From: Balanoglossus misakiensis
Lineage: Eukaryota > Animalia > Hemichordata
NCBI GenBank assembly: GCA_040954595.2
Contig: CM082587.2
Location: forward strand, 3,046,275-3,110,274
Length of the DNA: 64,000 bases
Reading direction: 5' to 3'
Shown here piece by piece: positions 5,034-29,900 of this stretch (its first letter is position 1; each line of letters begins with the position of its first letter). The position numbers were made by a program, and so were the translations under genes. The notes under the pieces were generated by a model. That model worked only from the letters and a program-made list of their open reading frames with translations, ran no database searches and had not been told where the DNA came from.

Positions 5034-5932
5034 CATTCGAGGAGTCTTTGTAGACATAATGTACCTTGGAGCTCTCGACGGCTCTATTATGATGTATACT
5101 GCTCACGTTTGACTGATTCTGTAGTCACTTCACATGATTTACCCTTGGAGTTATTGCAGAACTGCGGTACTGCCATTGAGACTAAAACAGAGATGTCTCC
5201 CAACGGAAAACTGACATTGTATGGCTGAGTAATTAATTAATTTTAAATAATCATTAGGCTAATACATGTACCTATCGGTCCGGGCAAAACGGTTAATGAA
5301 GAACATATATTCGACACAGATCACTTGCTATTGAGTTCGGCGAGGGGCATTGTGGTCTTATTTATAATTATATGCCTCTTTACGGAATCGCATTATCAAG
5401 TCATCAACCAAACGAATTTTATTCGGTGTATAAATTTCCTCTCTCAGCGCGAAAAAACTGCTCGTTCACGCATGAATTCCTGCGCTCCGAGTCCTTAATT
5501 AACTCGCGGCGTCCTTTTGGCCGTGAATGACGTCACTTCCTCTTGAAATATTTAATGTATGAAAATTATATCTTCCGTTGAGTTTTCTGAGACTCGTTTG
5601 TCAGTAAGCCGATAAACAAGCAAAGCTGTGGCTTTGTCGTTTTAGATCTCAGCTAGGACGGTTAATTTTTGTTCCATGATCGTAATAACATTCCAGAACT
5701 GTTGACATCGCTTCGAGGTTTTTATTCTTGTAAATAATCGGTAAGCGGGTAATTAACTTTTCATACGGTTCTTTCAGGGTTACTGATTCATGTAGCTTTT
5801 CATATTAATGCTTTTTGTTTCTTTTTCCTTTAATTTCTTTCAGAAATCTGTTGTGCTTGCCTGAAGACACGTTTGCCAAGTGAGTCTACAGTTCTTTCAA
5901 TCTATATCGTCATGACATCTGAAGAATAGGAT

Positions 5933-7474
5933 ATGTGGGGCGGTACAACCACCGTTCGGGGGGACGTCGAAGCATTCTACCGCCGACAGTATGTGCGAAA
6001 CGAGCAACTGCAACACCGCAACAACAAGCGGTATGGCGACGCTCTGAAACGAGAACTGAGGCTCATCGATCGCGGCAAGTCAATCCGCGCGCGAGAACTG
6101 GCCCAGCAGGAGACCAGGTACCTCGACAAACTCATCCTCCTCTTCAAAAAGCAGTGCGAGATATCGCTCGACCGGGGCGAAAAGTCAGTTTCGGCCGGGC
6201 AGGGCCAGGATGGTACGTTCGAAAGGCTCCGTGTCGGACTCAGCGAGAAAGTGAAGCGAGAGGAAAAACGCCAGTCTATCAAGGAACTGCGGATGAATTC
6301 GAATCGGCCGCGAACTGCGCCCCCAAGTTCAAGCCGCATCTACAGTCCTGTGAACGGCACTCGGTCGACAGGCGTGACGCCCAGACCCAGCGTTGCCTGG
6401 GTCGATGACATTTTCCAAGATGATGGCGTTAGTTTGCCAAACACAGTCATATCACCGGAAGAAGTTATTTCCGATTTGCCTGAAATCGGCACCAAACGAG
6501 AAGAAAAGCTACAAAATGGTTGGGTCGTCGGGACTGACACTAAACTATCCCCGAGAACTGAACCTGCCCGCATGGTAGTTGTGAGGCCAGAGAAAATGGA
6601 CAAGAAAAATGAAAGGGAGAGACCTCGAACAGAAACTGAAATAAAATCATCAATTGTCGAGCAAAACTCTCAAGAAGTCAACAGAGATACTAAAAGTGAG
6701 CAACATGACAATAGTTCTGAGACTATCAACGTTCCCAGTGGTCCGCTTAACGGACTGACAAAAGACATGGTCACGGTTTACAACATCTCGAAGAACGGCG
6801 TGGCTTCTTCGGGCGTTCCATATGCGACGCCGACAAACGTGAAGATAAAACCGGTCTTTGAGAAAAAGACAGCTCTTCCAAAGGCAACTACTCACTTTGA
6901 GTACCAACCAGAAGAGAAGCGCCCTCTATCAGCCTCCCATGTCCACTTGAGCGGCTACAAACCAAACTTGCAGACGATCGTCGAGGGGCAACATACCAAG
7001 AAATCTCGACCCAAGACCGCCATTCCGTCGTTTCAGCGCAAGACTAACGACGGCAGTTCGCATTTGACCGCGGCCACAGAGCCTACGCACAAATCGAGGC
7101 CGGGCACACCAGGGAACGCTAGATCGGCGAACATCTACAGTAAATTCGAACGCCAGGATCGCAACTTCTCGCCCGCCTCCGCGTCGCCGTCGCCGTCCCC
7201 TTCCCACCTGTCCCAGTCATTAAACGGGTGCAAAGGTCACAAAGACACCGAAGAGCTGAGAGAAAGATGTGCCTCCTGTCCATGTCCAGACGTTTCCAAA
7301 GCGAAGAGATCGGCGAAGCGTCGACCGAAGACGGCAGTCAACTATGATCAAATACAGGAGAAAATGATGCGACGACTGCTGGATACTCACATGAAAAGTC
7401 AAAGACAGCATCTGATGTTATATGCCAGGGCGCAATCAGCTCCAACCAGACGAAACCTTGGATTTTCAACTTAA
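5933..7474 (+). CDS. Uncharacterised 513-aa protein, single coding exon; N-terminal predicted coiled coil, then a basic disordered region with repeated RPx[T/S]A motifs
   Basis: 1542-nt uninterrupted ORF, GC-richer than its flanks. A strong acceptor (ctttttcctttaatttctttcag) ends at 5843 just upstream, and a candidate 5'UTR donor (cc|gtaagt) lies at 4028. No family recognised. Confidence 0.75.
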   Translation: MWGGTTTVRGDVEAFYRRQYVRNEQLQHRNNKRYGDALKRELRLIDRGKSIRARELAQQETRYLDKLILLFKKQCEISLDRGEKSVSAGQGQDGTFERLRVGLSEKVKREEKRQSIKELRMNSNRPRTAPPSSSRIYSPVNGTRSTGVTPRPSVAWVDDIFQDDGVSLPNTVISPEEVISDLPEIGTKREEKLQNGWVVGTDTKLSPRTEPARMVVVRPEKMDKKNERERPRTETEIKSSIVEQNSQEVNRDTKSEQHDNSSETINVPSGPLNGLTKDMVTVYNISKNGVASSGVPYATPTNVKIKPVFEKKTALPKATTHFEYQPEEKRPLSASHVHLSGYKPNLQTIVEGQHTKKSRPKTAIPSFQRKTNDGSSHLTAATEPTHKSRPGTPGNARSANIYSKFERQDRNFSPASASPSPSPSHLSQSLNGCKGHKDTEELRERCASCPCPDVSKAKRSAKRRPKTAVNYDQIQEKMMRRLLDTHMKSQRQHLMLYARAQSAPTRRNLGFST

Positions 7475-7570
7475 AAGCCCCATGAACTGCCAATTTTAGC
7501 ATATTTTTAAACAATAAAATACCTCGGTCGTCTTCTCCTAAGCCTACGGTCGACGCCATTTTGAATTTGT
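7471..7570. repeat. Fragment of a short interspersed repeat (related to 7852-8089)
   Basis: TTAGCATATTTT..ATAAAATAC..TCTTCT..GACGCCATTTTGAATTTGT is shared with 7875-7953. Confidence 0.55.
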
Positions 7571-7851
7571 GACGATTCTAATGCGCATGTGCGCATGGCA
7601 AGATGCCTGTGTACAATATTTCACCCAACATTTGAAACAAAACATGTTTAAAATTGGACTGTACAGAATTTTTTTATTGTAATTAAAATGAATTTATTGA
7701 ATACAAAGCTGACGTTCCAAAGCATTCTTCGGTATATACATCAAGGCGCAATGCATGATGGAACAGGAAATGGAACCCACGCACCGTTCTTAGCTATTCA
7801 CGCACGACTATAGGATTTCCGGGGGAGGGGAGTCACGAATGAGGTATACTG

Positions 7852-8089
7852 TCAAAGTCCCAATAGCTGACACCTTTAGCATATTTTAATCGATAAAATA
7901 CTTAAATCTTCTACCAAATCCTTAGTCGACAAATGACGCCATTTTGAATTTGTTAAAATTCTACCACCCATGTGCACATACCACAGTAGTAATGGCTACT
8001 CTTGCAATGAAATATTTTAGATACCAATGAAATTTCAAGAACACCTGGCTGGCCACCTGATAGCGACACGTGTCGCTGGGAGACTTTCA
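7852..8089. mobile_element. Possible degenerate non-autonomous DNA transposon (MITE-like), ~240 bp
   Basis: Similar to 7471-7570; imperfect inverted ends TCAAAGTCCCAATAGC ... GCTGGGAGACTTTCA. Confidence 0.35.
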
Positions 8090-9845
8090 TGGTCGTGACC
8101 ATTGCCACGGATGTGATAAATAATGGTCGCACCTTCGAAGTGCCGTCCACTGCATGGCACCGTGGCAGTTTCTAGTGTAATGCCGGTGTGGGTGGATGCG
8201 TGTGGGCGGGGGGGGGGTGCTTCTCCAGTGGTTGGAACGACAGGGTACACTTGTCTTATATGGTCAAGCTGCCAAAATGAACGCCGACGTCCAGAAAGTC
8301 CTCAAAAATGAGCATGCTTCATTCTCATGTGTCGGCAAGCCTGGCGTGACATTGGCTTTCACTCGCCGGCTTCCTGCACATCACGCCAATGAATACGCCC
8401 AGACAACTGCTAGTTAATAGCCAAATACACTTTCTAAAGAGGACCTTGAGAAAGTATAAATCGACTTTTAACCTGTCCTAATGCAACCGGCTAAGTGCTG
8501 TGGAATTTGAAGCGCCATTGCTCGGGGGGCATTCTATGATTCTGGGCATTTTTGTCGTGCTTTGACAAAACAACCACCACACTGTTCAGGCCCAGATGAT
8601 ATGCGACCATTTGTGTGAGGTCAGTGGCGCGAGACGTTCTCTGTCCACTATGCACTCCGCCCACCCACCATCAAGACAACGTAGCCTGAAATTGAGGCTA
8701 AGGGACTGGTCAGTTTCTTCGGCTGGGGCGGGGAATTCTATTTTGCGGGTATCATAAAGTGACTGACACCCCCCCCCCCCCACCTTCTCGGGGCTGCATC
8801 CAGCGAAATTGAATATATTTGAGAAGTGGGCGTTAAAGTGTTTGGAAAGTTGCATTAATTTCCGAGAGTGGGAATATTTTCACGGCGGAGTAATTTTCCC
8901 ATTTGAATTTAGGAGCATACTATTTATATAACATTCTTACTCAGCGTACTGTGAAGCAGTATAAATACCTTTCACCTGTAAAGGTCTACGAATCACTGAT
9001 CTGTTTCAAAAACAAGTATTTTACATTCTACGGCGCATTCCACTTTTGTATATTACACACCAAGATATGACTGTCTTCAATACTATGTACAGTTTCCTTC
9101 AGTGGCCTGGTTCAGGCTTGAACGATTAATGTCATAGGCGAGTTGTCATGTCAGTATCCCATGACTCCCCGCCCGCGTCAACGACCTCATTGCCGTCACG
9201 TTCCATTTACTAAAATGACATCGTACTCGGGATTATGCCTGCAACAATCATCCCTCCGGATCAAAAATATGTCAATATCACGAGCGGGTCCAGACAAGCT
9301 TGCGAAACAATACTATTCTATTTTTAAAGCTATTATTATTATTATTACTATTCTATTCAAAAAAAATAAATAGGCCCCTAATCGTTTTGTTCTTCTCAGA
9401 TGCATCCTGTAATACCGAGAGACACTATTTAAACTATAGGCGTCCAAGGAATTTAACACATCAAAAATAACATTCTTTCGAATCAATACCGGTATTGTTT
9501 AGAAAAATGCCAGTCATCGGAAGCATGTGACGAGTACATGTAGTTCGACAAACATAGTCATGGTCGCTCCACACACCGTGCATGACAGTGATGCAAACAC
9601 GCCAAGAAAAGGCCGCTTTTGATATCTGAATGTTAATTTGAGAGAGAGAGAGAAAAAACTGCTTTGAGGTCGTTCGCTGGCCTTGAAGCCGAGCACGTGA
9701 ACCCAAGCTTGTAATCAATCTTCTTCGAGAGAAATGAATTTTTTTGCATAGACTGTACCACTGAATTTTGGACATGTACTTTCATTGTCTGACACCTGAT
9801 GCAAATACATGTGTGCGCCGACGAATACGACGATTCGACCAGGCG

Positions 9846-10012
9846 GTCACGTGACAAGAGCTAGCCAATGAGATTGCAAGGCCAGGCATTCACAGAAGGC
9901 CCTATAAGAAAACTGCGATCGTGAAACGCCCAACATCAGTAGCCAGCCAGTTATCCATCAACCACAGTCCCAACCCGGGTTTTCCTCTTGTCTGACAGAT
10001 AAAAAACCAAAG
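9846..10012 (+). promoter_or_regulatory. Putative promoter and non-coding first exon of micro-exon gene A
   Basis: In order: GTCACGTGAC E-box (9846-9855), CCAAT (~9865), TATAAG (9903), Inr-like TCAGT (9936), then a strong donor AAG|GTAAGT at 10013 that could splice to the acceptor at 11262. Confidence 0.5.
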
Positions 10013-11270
10013 GTAAGTAAGAAAAAATATTTTTTTTTTTATCCCGAAACATTCGTGGGGAATCGCCAACGGAGTGGATCACTGTCTTCGTTCCTTTCGG
10101 GCAGAGATAAAAAAATCTCTTTGTGTTTCGGGGATAACTGCAAGTCATTTTGGAAACCATTTGCAAAATGTATTACTATTATACACAAGGTTTCACAAAA
10201 TTTCCTCGGATGAAATGTGTGTTTTATAGAAAGTTCACATATTCAAATGATCGGATTTCTCTAAACCGTAGATTTCTCGAAACCGCAGAGAAACTACAAA
10301 ACTCCAGGGATTGGCAAATACGACTAAAATAAGCTATGTGATGAGCAAAGCCGCGTCCCTGATGTGTCCACCCCCCGCGCGCTTTCCTGGCTAAAAAGTA
10401 AAAGCAGATCCCCACACCACTGGACGGGAGATGCAGCCTCCGCGAAAATGGGCAAACTTTCAAACGAATGATCAGATCCGCGAACGCTCATTGTAGCTAT
10501 AAGCAGACTGGCCTTTGTGCATCGTCAGTCAAGCGCACGTTTTACCGGAAAGAGCAGCGCCATAAAATAGAAAGGCAGTATCTGCATATCTGAAGGGCAG
10601 GTGCGTGTGCGGAATAAACAGTTATTCACAAAAGCGGCGAGTAGACATCCGTCCGGTTTTGTACAGCTGTCAACATGGCGCGAGTGGCCGGTCACATTTC
10701 AAGGTGTTTCCCGTGCGTACCTTTCAACGCAAAATTTGGCTTCGTTCGATCAGTGTTGTTTGAAAGAACTTTCCTACGAAAGACTATGGCAATGAGCATA
10801 AAAGCTTTGTTCGGTTTCAGAAATCTTTGCTGGGTTTTTCAATGACTCCCCCCCCCCCCCGAAATTTTGTCAGAAACGAACCTTGACCCGTGGGTCACTT
10901 CCCGATGCAATGCTAATATGCCACTTTGGTATGTTCAACATTACATACAACATTCACCCATTTGTAACACACAGAATTCAACTTATTTGTTCTGGGGTGA
11001 GTTAGTGCACAAATTCAACAATATGGTTGGTTGGTTGACTGTTCAAAATGGTAACCGAGCCAAAAATGCCAGGATGTAAAGGACACGTGATGCAAAAAAC
11101 ACGTGTTTGTCATTTGCCAGGGGTACGCACACTATAGTGTCTCACCTGGGTTCACGTGCCGAGTGCAAATAGTAGATATTGCGCTTCCTGTTCGTTGCAT
11201 GATTAAAGCCATGTGATTCCTATCGACTGATGATAATGTATTTTATGTATTTTATTTTCCAGACGTCAAT

Positions 11271-12694
11271 ATGATGAAACAAGTGCTCCTGATCGCAATC
11301 ATTGCTTTCTGCATTGCCTGTGCATCTGGTATGAAAGTACATGTATTTGTAGTTGTTGTTGTTACCGGCTTGTTTCAAAAGATTCGAAATCAGTTAATAT
11401 AAACTTCTTTCAATCGCAATTATGGTCCGTTCTAAGAGTCAATTATACTGGACTTATCCATATATATTTATCTCAGCGTTTCCTCCAATTAAATTTACTT
11501 CCCCTATTCCTCAAAGTTCTTCCTTCATATGTCTTTATTATAGAACACCAATTACTAACTATTTTATTTTACTTTCCCCCTATTTAGCCCAATCAACAGC
11601 AGGTAAGATTTTCTTAATGATACTATTATATTATCTTTAATATGTTACATTAGTATGAAGCCAAATTTCAACATATTATTGATGATTTGTGTTATTTTAC
11701 CATATTTCTTGCGCTAAATTTACGACTTTTGCTCAGAGTCGGCCGAATCAAATGAAGCTGTGTAGTAATGGTGATGGTATACTCTACATGCGAGTGAATG
11801 TGTCGTTTCTTTTGTCCTTTCTTAGCCACAACAGCTGCAGCCACAGACGCACGTAAGTTTTGCCTTTGATCACTGGTACACTTTAGGAACTTCTTTAAAA
11901 ATACCGACTGGGTTTGCTATTTTGATTGCACTCTTTTGATGCCAGACGACAGCTTTGTTCTAATGACTAAAAAAGACAGACCGCCATGATGCGTTAGAGC
12001 GCAACTCTCGCTGGGCTTTGCATATCAATACTTCAGTGGTCACGTGACAATTATGTAGGGATTTTCTGTTTTACAAATTGAACCAAGAAAATCAAACGAG
12101 TTTCTTCCTCAGCCGCCTCCTTTATACATGTCGGCAAATTTATTTTTGCCCATGCATACAAATTGAATAAAATTCAAAAATTTCAGTGTCAAATTATTAC
12201 AATACCATTGTTTTCATTTGGGTAGAGGGTTCTATTGTTTTCTTTGTGAATAATAATCTATCGCTTTTATTTATGTTGGTCGCAGCAACGAGCGAACCTG
12301 AAGGTAAGACTTCGCCGCTTCTCAATGTTCTTGTTTTGATTTTTCGGGAACATTTTGTGGTCGAGGAATAATTATTCTGTCTGGCAACTTTAATGACTAT
12401 TAATCTGGACACTAATACTAACGTACTTTCCCTATTCATTTTCTTTCCAGCCACCACCGCAAGTAAGTAATTTGATTTTGTGGTTAAACGTTTAAGTTCG
12501 ATTTCCTAATTATCCTAATAAGAATTGTTAGTTCGCAGTTTAGAGATTGTATTCTGTTGTGTATATACAAAACCAGGCGTTTACTAACGTGGTAATTTTA
12601 TTGTCTTGTCGTAGACGGCGCTGTTGGCCTCCAATCAGTCGGTGCCCTGTTGATGACTGCCACCCTGTTGGTCGTCAGCCGTTGGATTCAGTAG
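11271..12694 (+). CDS. Micro-exon gene A: 69-aa precursor of a small Thr/Ala-rich, predicted GPI-anchored glycopeptide (CD24/CD52-like architecture)
   Basis: Coding exons 11271-11328, 11588-11602 (15 nt), 11826-11852 (27), 12286-12303 (18), 12451-12462 (12), 12615-12694; all introns GT-AG and phase 1. Translation: MMKQVLLIAIIAFCIACAS-AQSTA-ATTAAATDA-PTSEPE-ATTA-NGAVGLQSVGALLMTATLLVVSRWIQ*. The paralog at 15247-16909 supports the model. Confidence 0.85.
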
Positions 12695-13233
12695 GAGCCC
12701 GGACCCTCAAGTCAGAAGTAAGACTTGGATAGCTTTGTCTCTGTGTTCTTATTACAAAGAGGATTTTTGGTCGATCTGTTGTTTGAAGGCCCTGCTTGCT
12801 CGCATTGTGAACACTCCAACTATAACTGAATCACAACTGACAGTTTTAGGAAATGTTGTTTTCGATTCCACGACCGTTGCACCAACTGATAACGTATTTC
12901 TATGCATTTTTTTCGTTTCAGGCCACGTTTTTACCACCGAGTGAACCAACAACGGACATGTTAAAATCTAACTGGCTACCTGAGTGATTTTGTTTTTGTT
13001 CACATTAATTTTGTTTCGATTTACAACCTTTTGTAAGTTTTATATTGATGGTAAACATAACATATAGATAGACGCATATAGATAGAACTACTATATCTAT
13101 CTATGCAAATATAGACTCCTTCACTCGTGCAATTTGTATTCAAGTGTATCAGGATTTGTCTATAGTTAACAGTTTGAAGATTGCGCTCACTTTCGCCAAA
13201 TTCAAGTTGTCAGCCTGAAGTGATGTGTTCAAA

Positions 13234-13309
13234 ATGACGGTGCTATGGATGACGAACAACGGAAGTGACATCATTCAGATGGAACTTCCGTTTTTGATGA
13301 CTCCGTACT
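13234..13309 (+). promoter_or_regulatory. Conserved 3'UTR block with stem-loop (gene A copy)
   Basis: AACGGAAGT-ga-CATC-attca-GATG-ga-ACTTCCGTT (13258-13292); aligns with 17422-17496. Confidence 0.65.
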
Positions 13310-13442
13310 CGAATGAACGCGACGCATCAGTTTTAAAGATTGACGCGCTGTCCTTGTTGAATGTTGACAAAGTGAAATTACTGGTGCATGGGTATTTCAA
13401 CCATGGTGGTGCTGTAATAACTTGAGTTATGAGGGAGTTGGC

Positions 13443-13448
13443 AATAAA
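13443..13448 (+). terminator. Candidate poly(A) signal of gene A
   Basis: AATAAA ~150 nt downstream of the conserved hairpin, followed by GT/T-rich sequence. Confidence 0.5.
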
Positions 13449-15246
13449 CATTTAAATGTTAACAATAACATAATTGTGGAGTGCGTTATTTCTTGACACC
13501 CCTTTGGGCATGCCTACAGACTTACCATTGGGGAAGTGAAGAGTCCCACTTGAGAAGAGGGTTCCCTTGTTTGCTTTGCCTGTGCTCCGATCAGCGATAT
13601 AGGTCATCTCCCAGATTCACGATCTAGCCAGCAACCATTCTCACCTACAATAAAATAAAAAAGGGAGAAGTGGGTCAACCTTTTATTGTCCATCACAAGG
13701 CCTTGCTGTGGCCGGTGTTATACCTGACTAATGGAGGATTACAACCTCGTCCAAACATCGTCTCAACTGCCGATATAAATCGACGGAAAGGGGAAGGAAC
13801 ACCATGCCACTCCTCTCACTTCACTTCCCTAAAACAAAGCTTGTGGCTTATATAGTAACCTAAATATACTAAACAAATGCACACAACTAATACAATCTGA
13901 AACCCCGGTAACCACCGCACGATGAAATTGCCAGCCAATCAGGGGCGACTAGACTCTGGAGACAGTTTGAATTATTGATATGACCGTGCGGGGACATTTA
14001 TTTGAGAAAAAAACGTCGTTTGGAGACAGCCAGTCCGCCAAAACCTGCGAGAAGTGAAACAGAGCATCTGTGCAGCTTTCTGTGAAACTGACTTTAGGTA
14101 GGTATATTTTTTTTTGTCATGAGAACATTTTATGAAGCATCAAACGAAAATGAATCGGACCGAGAGACATTTGACGTCATTATCAAGTGATGGTTCACGA
14201 AATATAGTACAAATGTAGTTTTTTTGGATAGCGTTTGAAACAGAGAGAATCAATTGTTTTTAAGAGATCTTCCATGTGCAAATTGAAATCGCTTTTGAGT
14301 ACAATTTAAGATTTGATAAAACTTTGAGTAATTTCAGATATTTCTGTTCACGTCACCAATATTCAGTTACACCACAAGTGTGGATGATATTCCAAAAAGG
14401 TGTACAAACGTTGATTTTTGTAGATTATCTTTCTCTTCTCCGATTGCATAGTCGTGCGGAATGGATAGGATTGTTCCCATGGTATCGTGACGATATTTTG
14501 CAAGCGTATCAGTCATTCCGGCGTCCATGGGTAGAAATCGTTCTCGCGTGTCTAGACTTCGTTCGCCAAGCGGTCGCCTTGGTTACTTCATTTCCTGTTC
14601 ACTCGGTGGCCACTCGTTATGCTTAAAGCCACTTTATAATATGTGCGTGTTTTTTTTCTGCCAATAATTCTAATAATTGGAGAGAGTGCACCATCTATCA
14701 TTTGGCAGTCTGTCGTCATCAACGATGTCGGTTGGCTGATTTCTCCTTCACGAAGTTACAGCAACAGAAACCGTAGATGGGGGTCATGGTTACAGCAGAA
14801 CCCAGCGAAAGCCGCCATAAGGCCCACGAGTCACCAGATTCCATGAATAATGTCGAACACATTAAAGTCTGTAGCGGCGCCAAATCAAAAATATACTAGA
14901 AACGACACATCCGGGGATATCGGCGGGAGGGCAGATGTTTCCGCCGTCAACGGGTCCAATTATGACGTTTCAGTACAGAAATTTAATGCATATCGAACGT
15001 CGACCATACATGTACTTCTAATGTAGTTTTTACACGTGGTTGAACACACAGTATAGGATGGCACGTTCTCATACTTGTAATGTACGGATTACTTAATTAT
15101 GAAATAGGCCTCTTTCACTGACAGCATTGTTCATTTTTATGCCGTATAAGTTATTCATGATATCCTGGCTTCAAATGGCGACATAGTCAATAGTGTATGT
15201 TGCTTATCATATAAACACGTTATTTTATTATTTTACAGACATCAAG

Positions 15247-16909
15247 ATGATGAAACAGCTTCTCATGATCGCAGTCATTGCTGCGTTCGCTTCCTGTGCA
15301 TACGGTACGAGTCTCGCATTCTATGAACGAATTTACAAATGTAATTTGCAACTGAATCATCGCAGTATTTTCTCGAGCTCCAGTCTTCTACGTCATTAAC
15401 GGTTGACGTTTAGTGTCTGTGGTTATGATCAAAATGTGCGAGGAGTCTTTTTTTGAAATCATCATCATCTAATCAAAAGAATATTAAAACAGATGGTGAT
15501 CAAGTTCCTTGAAATTATATATGTGTCTATTTTAATATTTTTTTTATTTTTTTCTTTAATATAGCTACGTCGACGGCAGGTAATTGTCGATTTTATTATC
15601 AAACAAACTCCTGGAGTTTGGAAAATTGTCTATTCGATCAATGAGAATTTTTTGACAAAAGCGATGAGTCCCTAATTACTTTCTGTGACAGCGACGAAAG
15701 ACGCACTGTCGAATACTGACTGAGTCTTGTATTATTTCATTTCTATGTAGCAACAACGACGGCGGCTGGCGGAACAGGTAAGGACCAGTTTTGTTAACAA
15801 AATTGTCAATATGGAAGGTTCAGTCCATGGATGCACACTAATTCGCAGATGAAATGCATTTCACAACGCATTGGTGATTTACTCAAGGTCAGAGTGTGAT
15901 ATGAAAAGGATGGTTTAATGTCTATTATTTGAATAACATATTGCTGTTTCATTGGATGTTCTAACAGAGACTACCACGGGTGCTCAACAGCAACCAACAG
16001 GTAAGAACTTCAAAACACAAGAACTTTGTCGTTGGTAGAAAACACAGGATCGAGTCCGCTCGGGGGAAGAAAAGCCGAATTTTAATGATAAACTTCGCTG
16101 TGTCGTCTCTGCAGCGGGCAATTTCGTTAATTTTGCAATTTGGAATTAGAGTTTACATCTGTTGTCGCACGGCTGACAAACTTCACGTTATCATCTCTCT
16201 TTCAGGGACTCAAAGTGAGTGTTGTTTGGAAAACTGGCGGAGAGTGCCATCGCACACAGAGTGAACACTTCATCCTATCAGAGTTTATCGCAGGAAGTAA
16301 AAAATTATCGTGATACATGTAAAACGATTAGTTCTCGGTTGGTTGGTCGATTTGTAACGGCACAGCTACGTGCGTGCCATTAATAACCGTTTCTACATTA
16401 CTATTCCCTTGTATGTAAAGAGTGCATGCCATCAGTACAAACCTAAGGGTATCGGCCGCCATTTAAATACTATTTAACACCTGGTTTTATTTTCAGATAC
16501 ACCCCAGACTACAGATGCAGGTGAGATTATGGGGTTATTTATCCGACATTTTCTAACGCGAATATGAATAAACTCTTTTGGTGAAATGAGAATGGATCTT
16601 TTAATTAATTCGAGAACATTAGAGTGAATACTGTTTATAAGTTTTAGCAAAACTCTGCCAATCGTAGCCAAACATGCATGAATTACGAGAGGGTTCTAAT
16701 ACAGTCGTTTTCCATTCCCCTTTCAGAAACCACAACTTCAGGGAGTAAGTATTTATACGATTTTTTAGCGTCGGATTTTTTAATTTGATTGTTTAAAACG
16801 TCAGGTTTGTAAACGGGTATTCCACTGTTTTACCGTAGGTGGTGCAACTTTAGTCGGTACTCTGTTGTTGACCGTCTCTCTGGTCGTCTACCATGGCCTG
16901 GTTCGTTAG
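15247..16909 (+). CDS. Micro-exon gene B: 84-aa precursor of a small Thr-rich, predicted GPI-anchored glycopeptide; paralog of gene A
   Basis: Coding exons 15247-15304, 15565-15579 (15 nt), 15751-15777 (27), 15968-16000 (33), 16206-16214 (9), 16497-16520 (24), 16727-16744 (18), 16839-16909; all GT-AG and phase 1. Translation: MMKQLLMIAVIAAFASCAY-ATSTA-ATTTAAGGT-ETTTGAQQQPT-GTQ-NTPQTTDA-ETTTSG-SGATLVGTLLLTVSLVVYHGLVR*. The 9-nt exon is the least certain. Confidence 0.85.
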
Positions 16910-17421
16910 CCGAATTGATAAAACCGACAGGTGAGATATAATTTTCGTCTACAGTGACCGACGTTGTTTCCTTGTTGTTTTGAGTGTTTCTTCCGCAATA
17001 TTGATAAGTTTGTTTCCGTGGCAACACATTTAGGCCGATCAATAATATTAATGGATAATTTCTGGTATTAACAGAAAAGGAGTTTCTAAATGATGGCAGA
17101 TTTAAAAGGAGCAGTTCCCAATCCATTAAACGTCGAACGTTTTCCTCGGTTACAGGTCTGATTTCCAAATGACGACCGGAGTTATCTAGAAATTCCTGAA
17201 AAGTTTGCTGTGCCGGACACTAGGCCCAGGCCTACCTATTATGTCCACTCTGCATGGGTGATGTATTCAGAGGAATAAGATAACAGCAGTCTACACAATA
17301 GACACTGCCAGTCTACCACTGAATATAGATGTCGAATTTATGGCAGAATTACTGATGCAACGTTAGCATTGTGTTCAACTCCTGACGGCAGTAAAGGGCT
17401 CAGTATGGAAGTGTTGTACAT

Positions 17422-17496
17422 ATGATGGTGCTATGAACGATGAACAACGGAAGTGATGTCACTGATGACACGCTTCCGGTTTAATGACGTCGCACT
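17422..17496 (+). promoter_or_regulatory. Conserved 3'UTR block with stem-loop (gene B copy)
   Basis: CGGAAGTG-a-TGTCA-ctga-TGACA-CGCTTCCG (17448-17478); aligns with 13234-13309. Confidence 0.65.
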
Positions 17497-17667
17497 TGAT
17501 TTGACAACAAACATGGCACTTCCATTTAACATGTTGAATTTTGTCTCGAATGAACCAGTATCTTCACATTTGAGATTGCAACGTTGTTTTATTTTTTTTT
17601 CAAAAAATGCCATACATATTGTGTTCGCATCTGTAATTGACCTTGACGTATACCATGTTTGCATTTA

Positions 17668-17685
17668 AATAAACACCGCAATAAA
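17668..17685 (+). terminator. Candidate poly(A) signals of gene B
   Basis: Two AATAAA hexamers (17668, 17680) ~190 nt downstream of the conserved hairpin. Confidence 0.5.
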
Positions 17686-18339
17686 GATGGACGTCATTAT
17701 TTTGGTGTAAAAATTGTGGTATTAATTATGTGATTGTTATGCGAAGAAGACGAAAGGGGAGAACACCGGCTCAAACCGGTTTGAACAGGTTTGCAATTTT
17801 CATTGCTTCGAGGAACGCTCATGTACCAGAACTTGGTCTTGGAATGTGGCGAGGTTGATAAAAATAGTAAAAAGTTAAATGTTCAGACCCTTGAGAAAGC
17901 GCTTACGTACTTTTTTAACATGTGGTCCGATTTGTTCTTACCCCATAAGCTTAATATAATGTCAAAAGTCACAACGAAGCTCTCTCGTCCGGTCGGGCTC
18001 GGTCGCATGTTTGCTTGTTAGGCCTAAGCGAAATATTTTGTTCTGACTCAGAACATGCGAGGTTTCTCCCCACCACCATGGACTTATAGTGCTGCACTCA
18101 ACGATGGTATCATTCTCTTTTCTCTCATCTAAGAAGATACCTCACATTCAAAAGCATGGTCGTCATGGTAATTTCAGATGCGTACGCACAAGCAGGAACC
18201 ACATACACACGTCGCGACCAAAGGCTTCTTTCTTCGTAGCATCCTTGTCATATCTGGTCAGTTTGTAGGACGCTGTAAGCAAGCGACCACCGACATTTTC
18301 ACTGTTATCAGCCAGCCATCCACGGGCGGCGCCGTGAGA

Positions 18340-21300
18340 ATGTCCACCTTTCTACGAATCCCGCGCCAGTTTCTGCCGGAGATTCAGCGCGACTCTCGTC
18401 GCGGAAAGTCTAAGTCGCTGATGAAAACCACAACGGCAACCACGAGCTATCGAGATGTGCAGGCGAACGGTCGGCGCCGCGTCGACAACTCGCGGTCCTC
18501 CTTCGGCTCGCTGTCGCAGGTCGACGAGAAGGTGCGCAACTTGCTGCTGCACCCGAACGACATCGGGCAGTGCAAGGCCAACCCGCTCACCCACCGAGGG
18601 AAGCGCATACAACTGGTGAAGATGCTGCTCTTGACCCTGTTGCCCGTCCTCTCCCTCGCCTTGCTTGCGGTCATCGACCTGCACGGCATCGCTTACGGCA
18701 ACAGCGTCGACATCCAAGTCCGGAACGTCATCCGGTTCAGCCGGGACATCGGGGTCCTTCTGAGTCGACTGCAGCGCGAGCGAGACATGACGGCCCTGTA
18801 CATCAGCGTCATCGGACCCGAAAACAAGGCCTACCTGACGGAGACCTATCCGCTCACGGACAGCGCCCTGGAGGAGTTACAAGAATGGCCGGTCAAAACG
18901 CACATTTTGCGAGCATTGCCGTTTTTCCGAAAGAAAGAAGATTTCCGCAACCACTTAGCCAGCCACCGTGCCGACATCGACAAGTCCAACGCCACCGTGT
19001 ACGACGAAATCAACTTCTACACCGATGCTATCCAGATTTTCATCGATTGGCTTTACGAAAGCGTCGGCAATTCCAAAGGTACGGGTCTGTGGCAGACTCT
19101 GGTCGCCTACCAGTTTCTTATCGTGAGTAACGTCGACACGGGCATCGAGCGTACTCTGGGCTCAGTCTTCTTTTCTCGTGGCGGCTTCGACCGATACGAT
19201 GACTACATCTGGTACCTGGAAAAATACAACGTCGGTCGTACCAACTTCGCAGCCTCCAAACAATACTCGCCGCTGATCGAAAGACTTTACATGGAACAGG
19301 TAAAAAATCTGCAACTCGACGAAAATTTCACCCATACCATCGAAGAGCTGCGTCGGCAGATCATTTTCAACAACGGCGTCGGGCGGGTCGCCGACTTCGA
19401 CGACGCCGCCCGCTGGTTTGACGGCATGACCGTGTACATCGACATCCTCGCGGATGTGCAGAAGAATCTGGCTGACGAAATCCTCATCAAGCTGGAGAAC
19501 GAGCTGGAAAACGACACCGAAGCTATCGCGGTCAGCATCTTCCTGGTCATCGTGGTCATCATAATGTGTCCTCTGACCCTGCAAGCTATCTGGACACTGA
19601 CCACGGACATCCAGAACTACGCTCTGACGCTCGCCACCCAAACCAAGGCCCTGAACCGGGAGAAGAAGCGCTCGAATTGGTTGCTGTACTCGATGCTGCC
19701 GAAAACAGTCGCCGAGCAGTTGATGCGCCACGAGGAGGTGAAAGCCGAGTATTATCACCAAGCGACCGTCTTCTTCTCCGACATCGTGGGATTTGATCGG
19801 CTGTGCGTGGAGAGCACCCCCATGCAAGTCGTGGAAATGCTGAATGGTCTGTACGTGTTGTTCGACTCGAGGATTGAGCTGTATGACGTGTACAAAGTGG
19901 AGACTATTAACGAGACCTATATGCTGGCATCAGGTTCGTTTAAGCATTGTTGTTTGTTTGTTTATTTGTTTGTTTGTCCTGTGGGACCCACACCCGCAGC
20001 CGCAGACATGACGACACCCACCCTTTAACTATTCACAAAAGTAAAACTCTTCTTCTCTTCACTTTCAGGACTGCCCGAGAGGAACGGGATTATGCACGTT
20101 GGCGAGATGGCCACGGTAGCTTTGGATTTGTTGCACAACATCAGTTACTACGAAATTCCTCACAAGCCGTATACCAAGATCAAAATCCGCATTGGAATGC
20201 ACATAGGTAGGTCGCAAATACCCACCAACAGAAATGGTATCTCTCTCGTCAATATTAAAAGGGAATATCGTTTTTTATGAGACAGGATCGCCGTTTAACA
20301 TTCTCGACAAATGGCAGAAACCATGTTTCTGTTGTTATAGTTACTGGAATGCACTGAATTTTCAGCTAGGCTAATTAGACGTGACAGGATACAGGATACC
20401 AATGACTATTTTTGGTACCCACCGGATGGATCATTCTACAAATTATGACAATACACAACATATCAGCAGAAATCTGATGACCGATGATTCTATACAGTCA
20501 TCTGACGAGGGAGACAACATAACTATATTCTGGGGGGAAAAAGTTCAAACGATGGCGAGATTGTCATGTTTTGATTGTCCACCGAATTACCGTTTCGCCA
20601 ATTAAAACCCTCTCCACACGCAAAGCGTGATTAGCGTCGTTGCTATGGAAATTGGTGGACTTCTGCAAAGGAAGCCGTGGCCATGCGCAGAAGAGGTCGT
20701 GATAAATCGGATCGGCCCCCGGGCATCACCATGGAAACAGTCACAGCTTAAATTTATTTGCTAGTCTCGAATCTGGCCAGTTCTTTTTTTTCAGGTACAT
20801 TTTCATATTGGGGATAAAGACTTATGTCGAACCTGTCAGATATTGAAGACTTGTTTGTGTGATTGCAAGATGTGATCATTTATATTTTCTGAAAAACAAA
20901 CACATCAACCCACGTCGTTTCAAGGTCTCTGTTACTATGGTAGCCGTATGGTTTCTTGTTTGTTCCTCGCTCGTTAGCCGCAAAAAAAACCTGAATGTGG
21001 CAGCCTGTATTCTGGTTATTTTCTCAGGGCCAGTCGTCGGTGGCGTCGTGGGACTGAAGATGCCCCGTTATTGCCTGTTCGGTGACACCGTCAACACAGC
21101 ATCCCGGTTACAGACCAACAGTTTGCGTGAGTTTTTCACATTTCTGGTTTGAGAAACTTGAAAATGTATGAAAAAGTATTATTTCACAATTTTAAGTACG
21201 CCCTTTAATGTCTTACAGCTAGCCGTGCTCACATCAGTCATAACTGTTACATGGGACTGCTGGACATAGGTGGGTACACCATGGTAAAACGAGGTGAAAT

Positions 21301-23951: not shown

Positions 23952-26900
23952 CTATGGGAGAGACTTCAGCAAATCACTGATGAATGTGTCATGGTTCTGC
24001 ACGTCGCCAAGGAGACCTGTAAATAAATTCATAACATGGTGAATCTGAATGAGTCAATTATGACTAGGTCTTCCCCTCTCCTCTCCCCATTTCCTTGTAC
24101 AGTTTTATCCATTCATGAAATACTATCAAGGCCCAACTCTCCATCCTACAATTAAACCCTAACCAGCCATTCACCCGTCTGGACCCAACTCCACTCAACC
24201 AATTCACACACACACAACACAAAGCCCACTTACCAACAATGTCACAGAATTCCATGAAGGTATCTGCAGGTAGGAAGTCGCTCTCATACTGGGACAGGAG
24301 CTGCATGAGAATGAACATCAAAAAAAAGGTTGTGAGAATGACAGATATCTCTCAAGAGATCATGAACCATCCCCTGCAGATTACACAAATGTTAATCATA
24401 GTCTTATCAACAGTGAGACCAGATCATCTTTTACCTTGTCTGTTCCTTTTATCAGCGATTCATCATTGTTCCTGATGAAGTCGGCCACTGCCGAGGCCCA
24501 GTTTTCACTGCTAGACATGCTGACTTTCTTGAAGATAACCGTGTAGAAGCCGTCTATCAACGCATAGTAAATCAAGGCTGGTTTGTAAACTGAATAGTCC
24601 TTCACATCTTTCTCTGTGATTCTGTGTGGCAAAAAAAACAACACATTTTCTCAGAAGGACAACAAATTTTCAAGTCAAAGTGGCCTTCAGTCCTGCTTCA
24701 TGCGTGGAAAATTACACCTGTCCCCTCACTAAGCTTGGTCAAAACAACATTCTGATCACAACAGAAGAGACAGACGTCCCACTGACGGACGTCTCAGCAA
24801 GAAAATCACCAACGCAAAACTTCGGACATCGTTCATCTCTAAACACAAACACTCACTTGGTAGCCCCACCCGGAGACACTCTCCTCGCATGCACACAGAC
24901 CAACAGTCTCTGTAGATACATCAGTCTGTTGGCCTGCCACTTGTCCTGGCCGTGAACCAGTAGTGAGAGCAGGGTGTAATAGAACGGGCTGTCCACTTCG
25001 TAGCAGCTCTCCACCCACTTGTCCTTGCCAGCCTTCAGGAAATTGCCCAGGTTCTTCTCTTCCCTTGGAACAGAGCGAGTTCTGTGTGGTGTGAAAAAAA
25101 ATCAAGACATATTGAGATGCGTGGTGTGACTGTGTTTTGTGAGCTTTGGAAGGAAACTTGTATGACATGGAGACAGATAGCAGAATTATGGCAATGTGAG
25201 ATTTAATGTGGTGTATTGGAGCAAGTTCTGCTTAAATTTCTGTTCCCCTTCTGTTATACATCCTGTTTCTGCACACACCCGACAATTGTTACTTACGTGT
25301 TGAGGACGTAAAGTGCCATGTGTATGACGTAAGGGATCATGTGCATGTTGCTCTGGCGACCGCCTCCCCCACTCTCGTCGCTGAACGACTTCTCAAACGA
25401 AAACCTCTGGAAAAGCAACTTCAGATCGTGGACCGTGGCGTAGTAGGTGGGCTCCCTGTGACCGGTGCGTTCTTGAAGATAGGTGTTGTGTCTGTGAAGT
25501 ACATAAATGTTTCAAAGAGATGTGAACACAATACACTATACACACATATACACATTTAAGCAAAACGGTCTCCTGAAAGAGGACTCTGGTTCCACAAATC
25601 ATATTACATACTAGGTATATGCATTGTGTAATAATACTTGTAAGAATACATGCAGATATTTCTGTGCCTCACCTTGCTAGGCAGCTGGCAAATGCTGATT
25701 CCGGGACTTGTGGTCCCCACAGTGGAAGCAATCCGTTACACTTGGTGTTGGCGTTCTGCAGCGCTGCGCTGTCCCATTCTTCTCGACCTCTTGCATGTCT
25801 GTCGGTGACAAAGACAGAGAATGTGCTATCAGGATGGTTACCCCCTGGAACGGACGTTCAGTTGGTGCTTGGGTAAGGTAAGTGACTAACAGGTGAATGC
25901 CCAGGGAGTGACTGTCCTTACACTGTGACTACAGCATTGTTTCTCTGAAATACGAGACAAAGTGTTGTTAACATACCTAACAGCCGACATGTGGCAGTCG
26001 TAATGCACAATGTTGAAATGGGAGACCGTGGCATATCCTTGAGTCTTCCGAGCTTTGTTTTCAAACTCCTCCATGTTGCATCGCTTCGTGTATGTGTAAA
26101 TTCCAAGAACCTGGATGGGAATGAGGAAGTAAAAATTATGAGTTCGCCAAAAGATTCAGTGGTTCAGGCAAGAATTAGTCTATCTCAACCAGTAGCACTT
26201 GATTACCACACTGCTGATAATTCAAACTATGGTCGTCCTTACCTTTGTCGGTTGATATTTGTAACCCTCTCGACAGATGCAACACGTCAGACCAGATTCG
26301 TCCACCAAATCTTCAAGAAGTAATCCAGCACTCTTGGCTTTCACTTGGCCTTTCTCGTTTGTCTGAGGGAAAGACAAAATTTTAATGAGAGGGTGAGAGA
26401 GACAGAGAAATGAGTCAGCATTACTCAGACAGATTTTGAGAGCACCAAAGACAACCACTGCTGATGTACTCACCGACATTCCCAATGCACCCAACTGTTT
26501 CTGTCTCATCGCCATGGCCAGCCTCTTCTTCTCTGCTTTGGTATTTTCTCGGACTTCCTTGATCTGTGAACAACACAAGTGTCCAATATTATCATCAGGT
26601 TCTCGTACATGTGCTTATTTAGGCTCCAATAGCTGTACGTTTTTCAGTGCAAACCATGCATTTTCTAGATCATCTCTCCTACCTTTTTGGAGACGTTTGG
26701 ATTTTCTTTCAGCGCTTCCATCAGATTCTCTGCCAGTGACCCCACGCCCTCTTCGCTGGAGACTTGTTCGAGTCGATGAATTGCAGGCACACAGTCATTA
26801 CCCACCAACTCCTGTACACAGAAAAAATTGCATCACTCCTGATAAAATGTTCACCCCTAATTCCTTCTGTAGAGGTCCAACTTTACCATAGAAAACAGTA

Positions 26901-29900
26901 GATTTGGGCCAAACCACGGTGGTGAAAGGGTTCAAGGCAGAGACAAATCCCCAGACACACACATGAACACTGTGAAAGACTACCAACCTGTGTCATGGTA
27001 TGACCAGTACACAACCCAGTCAGTAATTTCAGGATATATGGCAACGAGGGCTTGGCTATGAATTCCTTCCAGGGTGCACTGTCAACACTGCAGAAACAAA
27101 CAGAACATGGATCAGATCTAGCAAACGGCATTAATATGGAAGAAACAGACATACACAGTTTGATGGTATGATTTTCCAGTCCAGCAGATTTTGCATCTTC
27201 GTTTGTGTGGCCTAATACAAATTCTGCGGTATTTACTTAGAGGTATGACCTGTCTGATTTTGATCATGACCATGCAAAACCATCATACACCTAAAATCAC
27301 AACTGTGGCTAGGCTATGTTCATTCTCACCATACCTGAGGCTAACTCTAGGTGTGTGTTCTCCCATGTAGTCTATGGCTGTCTGGACTATCCCTCTTTCT
27401 ACTATCATGTTCTTCAGTTCACTACCATTGGCATTGCTCTGTAAACACGAAAAAAAATCGCACATTAATATAACTCTGTTTGCACCGATGTCCGTCAAAA
27501 TTCAACGTTACATCTCTTGCTAGATGTTACGGCTTTTAGTGAAACACGAAAGTACTCACCGTGATACCAGCTGCAACTACACAGAAACAATCTATATAGA
27601 CCTCTTCATCTTGTGTGTGTTCCTCATCGAACCTACATTGGAACAAAACAAAATACAAATCCTGTTGAATCACCATTCAAACTCTGTCGATGTTTATAGG
27701 GGCAGAACTTGAAATTCTCAACACCACAAAAAACAAAACAAAAGATGCACTCACTTGTTGAAATCGACATAGGGCTTGAAGAAGTTGATCAGCGTCTGCA
27801 TCTTGTCTTTGGAGCCAAACGTGAGGTAGGGTATAAGCCTCATCAACCCCTGCAGCACGTTGGTGTTGTTTCTGACGAAGGCGCTGTTGATTCTCTCCAG
27901 CAGCATCACCAACTGAGGCTTGTCACCAAACAAGAGCAGCGACGTCTGAAGCAAAGGTTACAGGGACCCAAAGTTAGCATCTGAACTAGAGATACGACTA
28001 GCACAATGACTTAAGAGACACCATGGAAAATATCAAACACACGGTAACAGCTGTCTGTTGCCAGTTGATAGGTATGGGTTGTACAAAATTTACATGAAAC
28101 TACACATGTAAAACTCACAGGCTTGTCTGTCATTTTCTGTTGGTTGGCTTCCTGCAGTACAACCTCCATGATTTCCATCAGTTGCTGGGCTAACTGTGCC
28201 ACACCAGTGCCACCCTGTTCAGTCTCAGCTGCTATCAAGATCTGCAATATGGAAAATAGTGCCGGTGACACTGCAGCTCCCATAGATAAGCAACACACAA
28301 CATAGCATTTTTAACATTATATTGACATAGCCTACCATGTTGAGCGTAGACAGCATAATGTTGATGGTGTTCATATTTGGTTGTATCAGTGCCTGCCGGT
28401 TGACCTTGACCTTGGCGCAGAAACCGAACAACTTCAACAGAACTGTCAGCAGTTGCTTGCCTCGTACGAGATCTTTGATGACTGCAAGTCTGCGCAACAG
28501 AGGGAAATAAAATTACAGTTATATATTGAATGCGAACAAAATTTACAGAATAGTGTTTAGTGTTTATCATACTGCATTTGTCATTAATAAAATCCTACTA
28601 CATTATTTTTTTACCTCTGTAACATGACTTCCAACCCTCCACACTCTGCCATGATGGTGGCCATCTTGTAAACTTCTTCATGGTCAACTTCTTCATCTGT
28701 ATTCAGAATAGGATTCACACAAGTGAAGTGAGCCATAATTGGGGGGAAGGGGTCCCCAGGGCATTTTTAATATTCATACTTGCTTGTGACAACACTCTTG
28801 CATTAAAATGCTTAAATGAAGATTTACATGGCATATTTAAATTCGTACCATTTGTGTTATCCAGTGAGTCCACAATATCCTCGGTGGCGTCTCCTAGCAA
28901 CCCTCTCATCCGGTACACTATACGCATTGGCTCTCCCTAGAAAAAAAGAGAAACATTTTCCAGGATTTGAATTTGTGGAAGTTGGAAACTGAATCAACTT
29001 TCATTTTTCTCAAAACTTTGTGTAACAATCTTTTCGCAGAAATGTAGCAGCAAATAAGCAGAAGTATCTTACCTCGTTTTCAGGACACCAGATCTTCTTG
29101 TAAACTTCCTTCACTGGCAAATCAAGACTGATGATCTTATTCTGTACCAGCAACTGTGAACAGTGAACAGGATAGGACAAATTATTGCGTGCACATAACC
29201 AAACAAATACTACACAATTTTCATTTACATCAATTTAAAGCCATTTTTGTTTAAACTGCCATCACTTCATTTCGTCAACACTTTGTGTAAATATTATAAT
29301 AACTCACTTCCATGCCATTATCATCTTCCAGCAGAGCGATGAGTTCACAGTCCTGACAGATCTTGTTCTTGACGTCTCTCATCAGCGGCCCCAATCCCGG
29401 TTCATTGGAACTGTAGGGATTACCTTGCATACGCCCTGACAGGAAGTCTTCCTGCTGTGGGTCTTTCTCTAATGTCATGAAGAACTCACCCACATCATTC
29501 TCCTCCTATAATTGGATACGATAACAACATATACAAGATCAGTTCTGAACACTCTTTCAAATTTTTTGGCTGGTGGTCGGTTGATACACAGCAGATAATG
29601 TATCTTGATGACTTACCGGGTAGATGATACTGCACAGTCTTTCAAAGATGAAGACAGGAGTTCTGAAGTCGTCCAGGCCGTACCTCTTGACTGTGTCCAC
29701 GCACACCGACATGAATGCCCGGGTCTCAGAGTCAGTACCTGTGACAACAGACATTTGAATTATGTTAATCAGTTTGCAAGGCACATCATCAGGCTGGTAT
29801 CATCAATTTCAATATTTTGACACACACGGTTGGCCATTTAAGACAGTACACAGGCTTAATTAAACCAGCCCATCCTCTCACCTGTAGTCATCTCCTCCAG

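Follow-up and report, generated by a model that had tools for sequence, protein, structure and literature searches.

A conserved, predicted 3'UTR hairpin with two opposed kink-turn-like motifs in tandem paralogs of Balanoglossus misakiensis, a candidate docking site for L7Ae-family proteins

Results

Two tandem paralogs are predicted to encode small surface peptides

The window, that is, the whole stretch of 64,000 nucleotides of Balanoglossus misakiensis DNA that was analysed (contig CM082587.2, positions 3,046,275 to 3,110,274), contains two tandem paralogs, referred to as genes A and B. Both were predicted from AG/GT junctions and an open frame, with guessed transcript starts and ends.

9940..13465, plus strand: predicted gene A
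9940-10012, plus strand: predicted non-coding exon of gene A
11263-11328, 11588-11602, 11826-11852, 12286-12303, 12451-12462, 12615-12717, plus strand: predicted coding exons of gene A
From 12922, plus strand: predicted terminal exon of gene A (stop codon TAG at 12692-12694; AATAAA at 13443)
14030..17705, plus strand: predicted gene B
14030-14097, plus strand: predicted non-coding exon of gene B
15239-15304, 15565-15579, 15751-15777, 15968-16000, 16206-16214, 16497-16520, 16727-16744, 16839-16930, plus strand: predicted coding exons of gene B
From 17156, plus strand: predicted terminal exon of gene B (stop codon TAG at 16907-16909; AATAAA at 17668 and 17680)

The predicted products of 69 (A) and 84 (B) amino acids share one layout. 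They are hydrophobic at both ends and have a Thr/Ser-rich middle part (36% in A and 46% in B), suggesting a signal peptide, a mucin-like core, and a GPI-type tail, a layout that we take to resemble CD24/CD52. Both coding regions (11263-12717 and 15239-16930) are built of symmetric phase-1 micro-exons, the internal ones being 9-33 nt long and every length a multiple of three. The mature peptides are predicted to comprise only about 20 to 40 residues, and exon skipping would vary the mucin core. Neither predicted gene contains an in-frame TGA, and both frames end at TAG; read-through of this codon was rejected, since gene B meets another stop two codons on.

In both paralogs, an intron (12718-12921 and 16931-17155) follows the stop codon at a distance of 21-23 nt, and the predicted terminal exon behind this 3'UTR intron carries the element described below. 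With an intron so close after the stop, nonsense-mediated decay is not expected. Both UTRs also contain CTGTAAT (13413 and 17632) 30-48 nt before AATAAA, presumably a UGUA cleavage-factor-type motif, which is too short for alignment significance. Nothing relevant on a gene family of A and B in hemichordates was found in the literature. A frame starting just downstream, at 18340, is 93% identical to a NIT-domain guanylate cyclase of Ptychodera flava and 65-69% identical to most of the best echinoderm and Saccoglossus matches; these identities point to a ptychoderid acorn worm as the likely host.

Elsewhere in the window, BLASTN self-comparison revealed a dispersed repeat of about 50-90 bp, with four copies 79-84% alike, which is probably a small MITE-like element. 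Its copies lie inside a long minus-strand gene that we presume to be UBR4.

26850-26937, 45813-45900, 49274-49340, 36530-36578, both orientations: copies of the dispersed repeat

In addition, there is a direct duplication of about 125 bp (7474-7596 and 7854-7979, 72% identical) just past the stop of the 5930-7474 frame, and an exact 25-bp direct repeat (56771-56795 and 56856-56880, 85 bp apart) that is either a tandem duplication or an assembly artefact.

A single non-coding block still aligns between the paralogs

A previous inspection of the letters, here called the sequence-only reading, had reported a block of about 75 nt shared by the two 3'UTRs. BLASTN comparison of the window with itself recovered this block (13234-13312 versus 17422-17499, 75% over 81 columns, E = 1.3e-5). 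The two sequences quoted at the time occur letter for letter at 13234-13301 and 17422-17488; the end given for the former, 13309, was wrong, and the limits were too tight, since the fold described below extends the element to about 100 nt in both copies.

13225..13320, plus strand: hairpin copy A, within gene A's predicted terminal 3'UTR exon, delimited by fold and alignment
17412..17509, plus strand: hairpin copy B, within gene B's predicted terminal 3'UTR exon, delimited by fold and alignment

Local alignment of A against B, region by region and with shuffled controls, was significant in 3 of 14 comparisons (p = 0.003 each), namely, for the signal-peptide exon, the last coding exon, and the element. 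The element scored 76, compared with 36.5 for the best shuffle, and is the sole non-coding block of the tandem paralogs that still aligns among the 14 regions. The introns and remaining UTRs, in which no similarity had been seen by eye, indeed gave p values of 0.07-0.91 in these comparisons, a range that also covers the first exon and the flanks, where no significant alignment was found. Since the introns and the other UTR sequence lack detectable similarity, the block appears to have been either selectively kept or locally converted. Copies A and B were the only ones found in the 64-kb window, BLASTN as well as covariance and sequence-only models detecting no third; a common dispersed repeat, a possibility raised in the sequence-only reading, would have many copies in the genome.

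The position of the block relative to AATAAA, stated as 150-190 nt upstream, was about right: the signal follows the end of the quoted sequence by 142 nt in A (13443) and by 180 or 192 nt in B (17668 or 17680). Predicted splice sites and poly(A) signals suggest that the block is transcribed within the 3'UTRs. A codon-like reading of its 5' half (about 10 codons to a TGA) was rejected, as it has no splice acceptor and leaves the 3' half unexplained.

The block is predicted to fold into a long hairpin on the mRNA strand

Copy A (13222-13323, 102 nt) has a minimum free energy (MFE) of -33.8 kcal/mol (z = -4.11), and none of 200 shuffles was as stable; its reverse strand reached -25.4 (z = -2.24). 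For copy B (17406-17514, 109 nt) the corresponding values are -35.5 (z = -4.00, 1 of 200 shuffles as stable) and -26.5 (z = -2.66). In both copies, the plus strand folds 8-9 kcal/mol more stably than the reverse, and the two element windows have the lowest z along their UTRs. The hairpins contain 4 and 3 G-U pairs, which pair on the mRNA strand only.

The shared fold starts with helix I, followed by the internal loop of a first tandem G-A motif (Kt1), a 5-bp stem, a UAU bulge, and 2-3 bp. Above these lie a second such motif (Kt2), a 4-5-bp stem, the CGGAAG/CUUCCG stem, and a variable top hairpin.

13225..13231 with 13314-13320, plus strand: helix I of copy A (pair probability 0.87-1.0 in isolation, mean 0.85 in the whole exon)
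17412-17417 and 17419-17420 with 17502-17509, plus strand: helix I of copy B (0.87-1.0 in isolation, mean 0.52 in the whole exon)
13258..13292, plus strand: upper hairpin of copy A, the stem-loop of the sequence-only reading (probabilities 0.9-1.0); counterpart in copy B at 17448-17478

In copy A, the upper hairpin consists of the CGGAAG/CUUCCG stem, a 2x2 GA/GA loop, a CAUC/GAUG stem, and a 5-nt loop; in copy B its probabilities are likewise 0.9-1.0 except for the last pair (0.69). The outer stem and both differing inner stems named in the sequence-only reading are present in the predicted folds. That stem-loop makes up the upper third of the hairpin, whereas the lower helices and the two tandem G-A motifs had been missed.

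Structure, alignment, and motif descriptor were drawn by hand with both copies in view, and relative to the MFE the hand fold is less stable by 1.1 kcal/mol in A and by 4.4 kcal/mol in B. In copy B, helix I is lengthened by an additional outer stem of 9 bp without mismatches, of the GGAAGUG/CACUUCC type (17405-17413/17517-17525), and in copy A an alternative outer pairing (about 13220-13228/13319-13327) competes with helix I.

Two tandem G-A motifs lie in opposite orientation in the predicted stem

The hairpin carries two AUGAY/YGA tandem G-A motifs in opposite orientation, and the distance between them is identical in the two copies along either strand of the stem.

13232..13243, plus strand: Kt1 of copy A, AUGA 13234-13237 facing GA 13311-13312, loop 4x1, paired by hand
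17421..17431, plus strand: Kt1 of copy B, AUGA 17422-17425 facing GA 17498-17499, loop 3x2, paired by hand
13296..13304, plus strand: Kt2 of copy A, AUGAC 13297-13301 (3' strand) facing GA 13251-13252, 2-nt bulge
17483..17491, plus strand: Kt2 of copy B, AUGAC 17484-17488 facing GA 17439-17440

All four motifs consist of AUGA(C/U) facing (C/U)GA, with an A-U pair before GA and a pyrimidine-pyrimidine third pair. In Kt1, the tandem is followed by C.C, G.U, G-C, U-A, G.U, and C-G in A and by U.U, G.U, G-C, U-A, G-C, and C-G in B. This stem is predicted with a probability of 0.89-1.0 in B and 0.2-0.5 in A, where a second register competes. Kt2 of A is flanked by a 3-bp stem below (0.92-0.95) and a 4-bp stem above; the lower stem in B has only 2 Watson-Crick pairs besides A.G and C.C, and with a probability of 0.01-0.02 in the hand register it is the weakest part of the fold.

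According to the available portions of PMC5061560 and PMC5689011, a standard kink-turn comprises a 3-nt bulge, then G.A and A.G, between the C and NC helices. The tandem G.A is present in 4 of 4 motifs, with 4x1 and 3x2 loops (Kt1) or a 2-nt bulge (Kt2) in place of the standard 3-nt bulge, and Kt2 lacks a purine-pyrimidine fourth pair. C at position 3b, which, as far as the accessible text of PMC5061560 goes, favours kink-turn folding in metal ions alone, occurs in 3 of the 4. Kt1 and Kt2 may be able to kink.

Single motifs are common in the window (9 + 12 and 59 + 95 matches). The opposed-pair descriptor, made with both copies in view, matched only A and B in the 128 kb of the window's two strands, against 17 matches in 32.3 Mb of null sequence. 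When the 32 unpaired letters of A were shuffled, both motifs recurred in 3 of 2,000,000 trials, other placements being disregarded. A scan of metagenomes gave one locus (L001) matching the pattern alone, which was dropped as a chance match; we take it to sit in a group II intron reverse-transcriptase frame. The scan of viral contigs for the element pattern gave 0 matches.

Paired positions tend to change together

The hand alignment comprises 35 pair positions, with 6 changes on the 5' side and 9 on the 3' side that coincide in 5 cases. Four of the five are compensatory Watson-Crick swaps (13248:13303, 13253:13296, 13269:13281, and 13270:13280), two of them in the top stem, where the changes could be CpG decay; the fifth is C.C to U.U beside the G.A tandem. 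At two positions with a single change, pairing persists as G-U, and the broken pairs are an A-U that became A.G and a lost terminal G-C. The p values for the coincidence (hypergeometric, 0.002) and for the 27 of 29 canonical pairs kept (simulated, 5e-5 to 1e-3 depending on transition bias) are post hoc and optimistic, because A and B were both in sight when structure and alignment were drawn up by hand, and because they are only two related sequences.

RNAalifold, which the sequence-only reading had suggested as a check, yielded 14 pairs on a MAFFT alignment, one of them compensatory. It retained the middle stems but not helix I or the top stem, which MAFFT misaligned. When the model was derived from the MFE fold of A itself, B reached 32.4 bits, without gain over the sequence-only model (39.5 bits); the hand-structure model scored 44.9 bits in a comparison that is circular. 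In the model-fitted alignment, 95% of the cells pair, versus 38-47% for slid partners. Among its 32 pairs, 7 show double changes (3 of 500 shuffles), of which the 3 in helix I were discounted because its register was fitted, and 4 were used.

Kt1 resembles the core of a SECIS element

As described in the accessible part of PMC2761289, a SECIS element has a tandem of 5' AUGA and 3' GA at helix 2's base, together with an internal loop closed by helix 1, and helix 2 should extend over 14-15 bp up to unpaired AAA/G or CC. Kt1 of both A and B conforms to the core, having the AUGA/GA tandem, the internal loop, and helix 1. The apical part differs: 5 bp are followed by the bulge and the second G.A motif, the first AAR lies 24 nt past the core and is paired, and there is no CC. 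SECIS models of Rfam gave no match at gathering score in the window and none up to E = 10 in 9000-19000. Since the predicted genes have no in-frame UGA and the element has no AAR at the required distance, we conclude that the element is not a SECIS.

The available text of PMC1874613 lists as rules for SBP2 binding a protruding U, A or G at loop position 2, the tandem G.A, a non-Watson-Crick third pair, a purine-pyrimidine fourth pair, at least two Watson-Crick pairs, and an internal loop rather than a bulge; it further states that AAR is unnecessary for binding, that the internal loop favours SBP2 over Snu13, and that SBP2 binds preferably where helix II is long and stable. In both copies Kt1 fits most of this, with a protruding U, A at loop position 2, G.U as the fourth pair, and G-C as the fifth, while the C.C third pair in A is outside the variants given in that part of PMC1874613. 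Kt2 fails the fourth-pair rule. Helix II above Kt1 is short and bulged, comprising 5 bp, the 3-nt bulge, and 2-3 bp; its predicted probability is about 0.5 for copy A and about 1.0 for copy B.

An ETS-CRE-like centre lies within the block

The sequence-only reading had offered a DNA element of inverted ETS sites around a CRE-like centre as an alternative. An ETS-CRE-like centre is present, but it covers only a third of the conserved block. The exact overlap motif CGGAAGTGACGTCA is absent, each copy having one mismatch at the central CG. The sites in A and B lie more than 3 kb from the predicted starts, and CGGAAGTGACGTCA is a proximal-promoter-enriched motif.

Elsewhere in the window, GGAAGTGACGTCA at 5524-5540 on the minus strand is an ETS-CRE-type site with an intact CRE that shares 16 of 17 letters with copy A. 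It lies between a presumably CLCA-like gene and the 514-aa frame 5930-7474.

Discussion

The strand-asymmetric folding, four compensatory pairs, and G-U pairs available only on the mRNA strand support a cis-acting RNA element, as the sequence-only reading had proposed, and we think it probable that the element acts as RNA. We propose that the hairpin of about 100 nt, with its two opposed kink-turn-like motifs, may be a docking site for an L7Ae-family RNA-binding protein. SBP2L, the most likely ligand, would bind the basal SECIS-like core Kt1, and Snu13/15.5K or L30 could take the upper motif Kt2. Once bound, the protein would adjust how the mRNA is translated or how stable it is, and no UGA would be recoded. 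A related case may be that of mouse Sbp2l, which, according to the accessible portions of PMC10783607, acts via a SECIS-like element in the 3'UTR of the non-selenoprotein mRNA Tcf7l2. Docking of an L7Ae-family protein, most likely SBP2L, with such a recoding-free effect is a tentative reading, to which we assign somewhat less than an even chance; protein binding, the identity of the ligand, and an effect on the mRNA are all extrapolated from the motifs.

Recognition of the hairpin by some protein other than an L7Ae-family member, such as an hnRNP A2-type or double-stranded-RNA binder, might instead provide a localisation or stability signal, and the folding and covariation evidence would serve this explanation equally. 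In the available text of PMC3153643, hnRNP A2 binds a GA motif in a 44-nt stem-loop of the PKMzeta 3'UTR that is needed for dendritic delivery. Copy A even has a third GA/GA loop (13267-13268/13282-13283). Yet this loop is lost in B, and the A-U pair before GA and the pyrimidine-pyrimidine third pair of all four motifs are not predicted by such a reader, which we regard as unlikely. The two opposed RUGA/GA motifs in C-D'-C'-D order and the U.U third pair in Kt1 of B would also suit a box C/D-like scaffold bound by Snu13/15.5K in a U3-like manner, in the mRNA or in a processed small RNA. Box C/D snoRNAs have RUGAUGA and CUGA boxes, guides of 10-21 nt, and an intronic origin or their own transcript. 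Here, consensus boxes of either kind are missing at the motif sites, the inter-box spacers are short and paired to each other, which leaves no guide, and the block lies in a predicted exon, not in an intron. The search against Rfam that the sequence-only reading had proposed detected 0 families at gathering score in the window; copy B has a sub-threshold match to SNORD41 (21.3 bits, gathering 41, E = 2.7), and outside the element IRES_APC matched below threshold (E = 0.51). A purine at loop position 2 favours Snu13 (available parts of PMC5499572 and PMC1874613), but Snu13 binds internal-loop versions loosely (PMC1874613, same limitation), and we rate the box C/D-like scaffold as quite unlikely. 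An exonic microRNA-type precursor would account for the long stable hairpin, and 22-nt windows starting at 13253-13255 keep positions 2-8 between A and B with 15-18 paired positions. In microRNA precursors, however, the conserved seed sits on a 22-nt arm of a 55-70-nt precursor. For the same-seed windows, which enter the apical loop, only about 45 nt of precursor remain. Windows 13241-13252, including those of the usual geometry (13245-13252), do not keep the seed between A and B. Conservation of the lower stem (13 of 14) equals that of the arms, indels occur in the 3' arm, and there is no Rfam match; taken together, this makes such an origin highly improbable. As extremely improbable we regard a genuine SECIS of atypical form, by which a UGA of another isoform would be recoded. 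Kt1 with helix I is a good SECIS-type core, and TGA-bearing frame-keeping exon candidates exist, but only in B, between 16727 and 16834 and with weak donors. Inclusion of the cryptic exon at 16769-16804 would require flanking introns of 24 and 34 nt, and gene A lacks a corresponding exon; both predicted genes stop at TAG without an in-frame TGA, and the paired AAR 24 nt past the core contrasts with the helix 2 of 14-15 bp given in the accessible part of PMC2761289.

Inverted repeats can gain matching changes via template switching. The element might be a neutral relic, an old inverted-repeat insertion or gene-conversion tract kept paired by this process, and most changes are indeed transitions at CG/TG/CA positions. 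In the signal exon, 1 of 11 same-residue codons differs (2 of the 11 are ATG), and because of these few synonymous changes local conversion is possible. Nevertheless, the mismatched or bulged letters (both AUGA, both GA, and the UAU bulge) are identical while paired letters change; repair of a palindrome would give the opposite pattern, erasing mismatches. Given also that 64 kb hold no third copy, a neutral relic seems very unlikely to us. A DNA enhancer composed of an ETS-CRE-like composite, an inverted ETS site, and CRE half-sites, with the hairpin as a by-product, could explain why A and B do not differ over 15 nt around the ETS-CRE-like site. Each copy departs by one letter from the ETS-CRE motif CGGAAGTGACGTCA (available portions of PMC3464117 and PMC4555227), and a near-perfect ETS-CRE site lies upstream of another gene (5524-5540). 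In neither copy does the CRE retain its central CG, however, and an enhancer leaves unexplained helix I, the GUGC/GYAC stem, the G-U pairs, the compensatory changes on the motif-free 3' strands, and the strand difference of 8-9 kcal/mol; we give it very little credence.

Returning to docking of an L7Ae-family protein, the hairpin is a small testable candidate, in that its SECIS-type core is conserved, its stems show compensatory changes, and the predicted genes offer no UGA for recoding. The natural targets of SECIS-binding proteins beyond selenoprotein mRNAs are described as an open question in the accessible text of PMC12936836. It is tempting to go further and propose a new 3'UTR class, in which a SECIS core back-to-back with an inverted kink-turn in non-selenoprotein mRNAs would recruit SBP2L, which in invertebrate deuterostomes is the only protein that binds SECIS elements, possibly alongside another L7Ae protein, and control translation of small GPI-anchored glycopeptides, although this wider proposal is doubtful. 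If true, it would constitute a conserved recoding-free target of SECIS-binding proteins and might link surface peptides to the selenoprotein machinery. Even with another protein as the ligand, the RNA element, which is absent from Rfam 15, would be a marker for co-regulated hemichordate genes.

Comparison with known systems

Neither this element nor opposed K-turns in a eukaryotic 3'UTR were found reported in the partial, open literature covered. We consider the element to be a conserved RNA hairpin, a putative K-turn cis-element, whose layout of a SECIS core plus an inverted K-turn is unreported in that literature and which falls outside every tested family.

With eukaryotic SECIS elements it shares the predicted 3'UTR position, helix I, the internal loop, 5' AUGA and 3' GA, the non-Watson-Crick third pair, and the G.U and G-C pairs above it. 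In contrast to these, its predicted genes have no in-frame UGA, it lacks an apical AAR or CC at 14-15 bp, and past 5 bp its helix II is interrupted, first by a 3-nt bulge, then by the inverted G.A motif. The GA-motif dendritic targeting elements of the PKMzeta 3'UTR and BC1 RNA, recognised by hnRNP A2, likewise have a tandem G.A beside an internal loop in a 3'UTR stem-loop; they are single motifs of mammalian neurons, whereas the present element has two RUGA-type motifs with SECIS/box-C-like letters.

The K-turns of the U3 3' domain are opposed. U3 snoRNA resembles the element in having two K-turn motifs, C'/D and B/C, in one stem (available part of PMC5499572), but the element has no consensus boxes, guide, 5' rRNA-pairing domain, or Rfam match, and is predicted to be exonic. 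P12 of euryarchaeal RNase P RNA also has two close K-turns in one long helix and can fold this helix back; there, the K-turns stand in tandem, and a single helix serves as the NC helix of one and the C helix of the following one (accessible text of PMC5499556), whereas in the element, which belongs to a eukaryotic mRNA, the two NC helices face each other.

The mouse Tcf7l2 SECIS-like element is similar in being a 3'UTR hairpin of a non-selenoprotein mRNA with proposed translational control by SBP2L. It was chosen by folding prediction and tested in reporters, and the available portion of the report gives no covariation (PMC10783607). The present element, known from sequence alone, differs from it in its conserved core, its compensatory changes, and its second K-turn.
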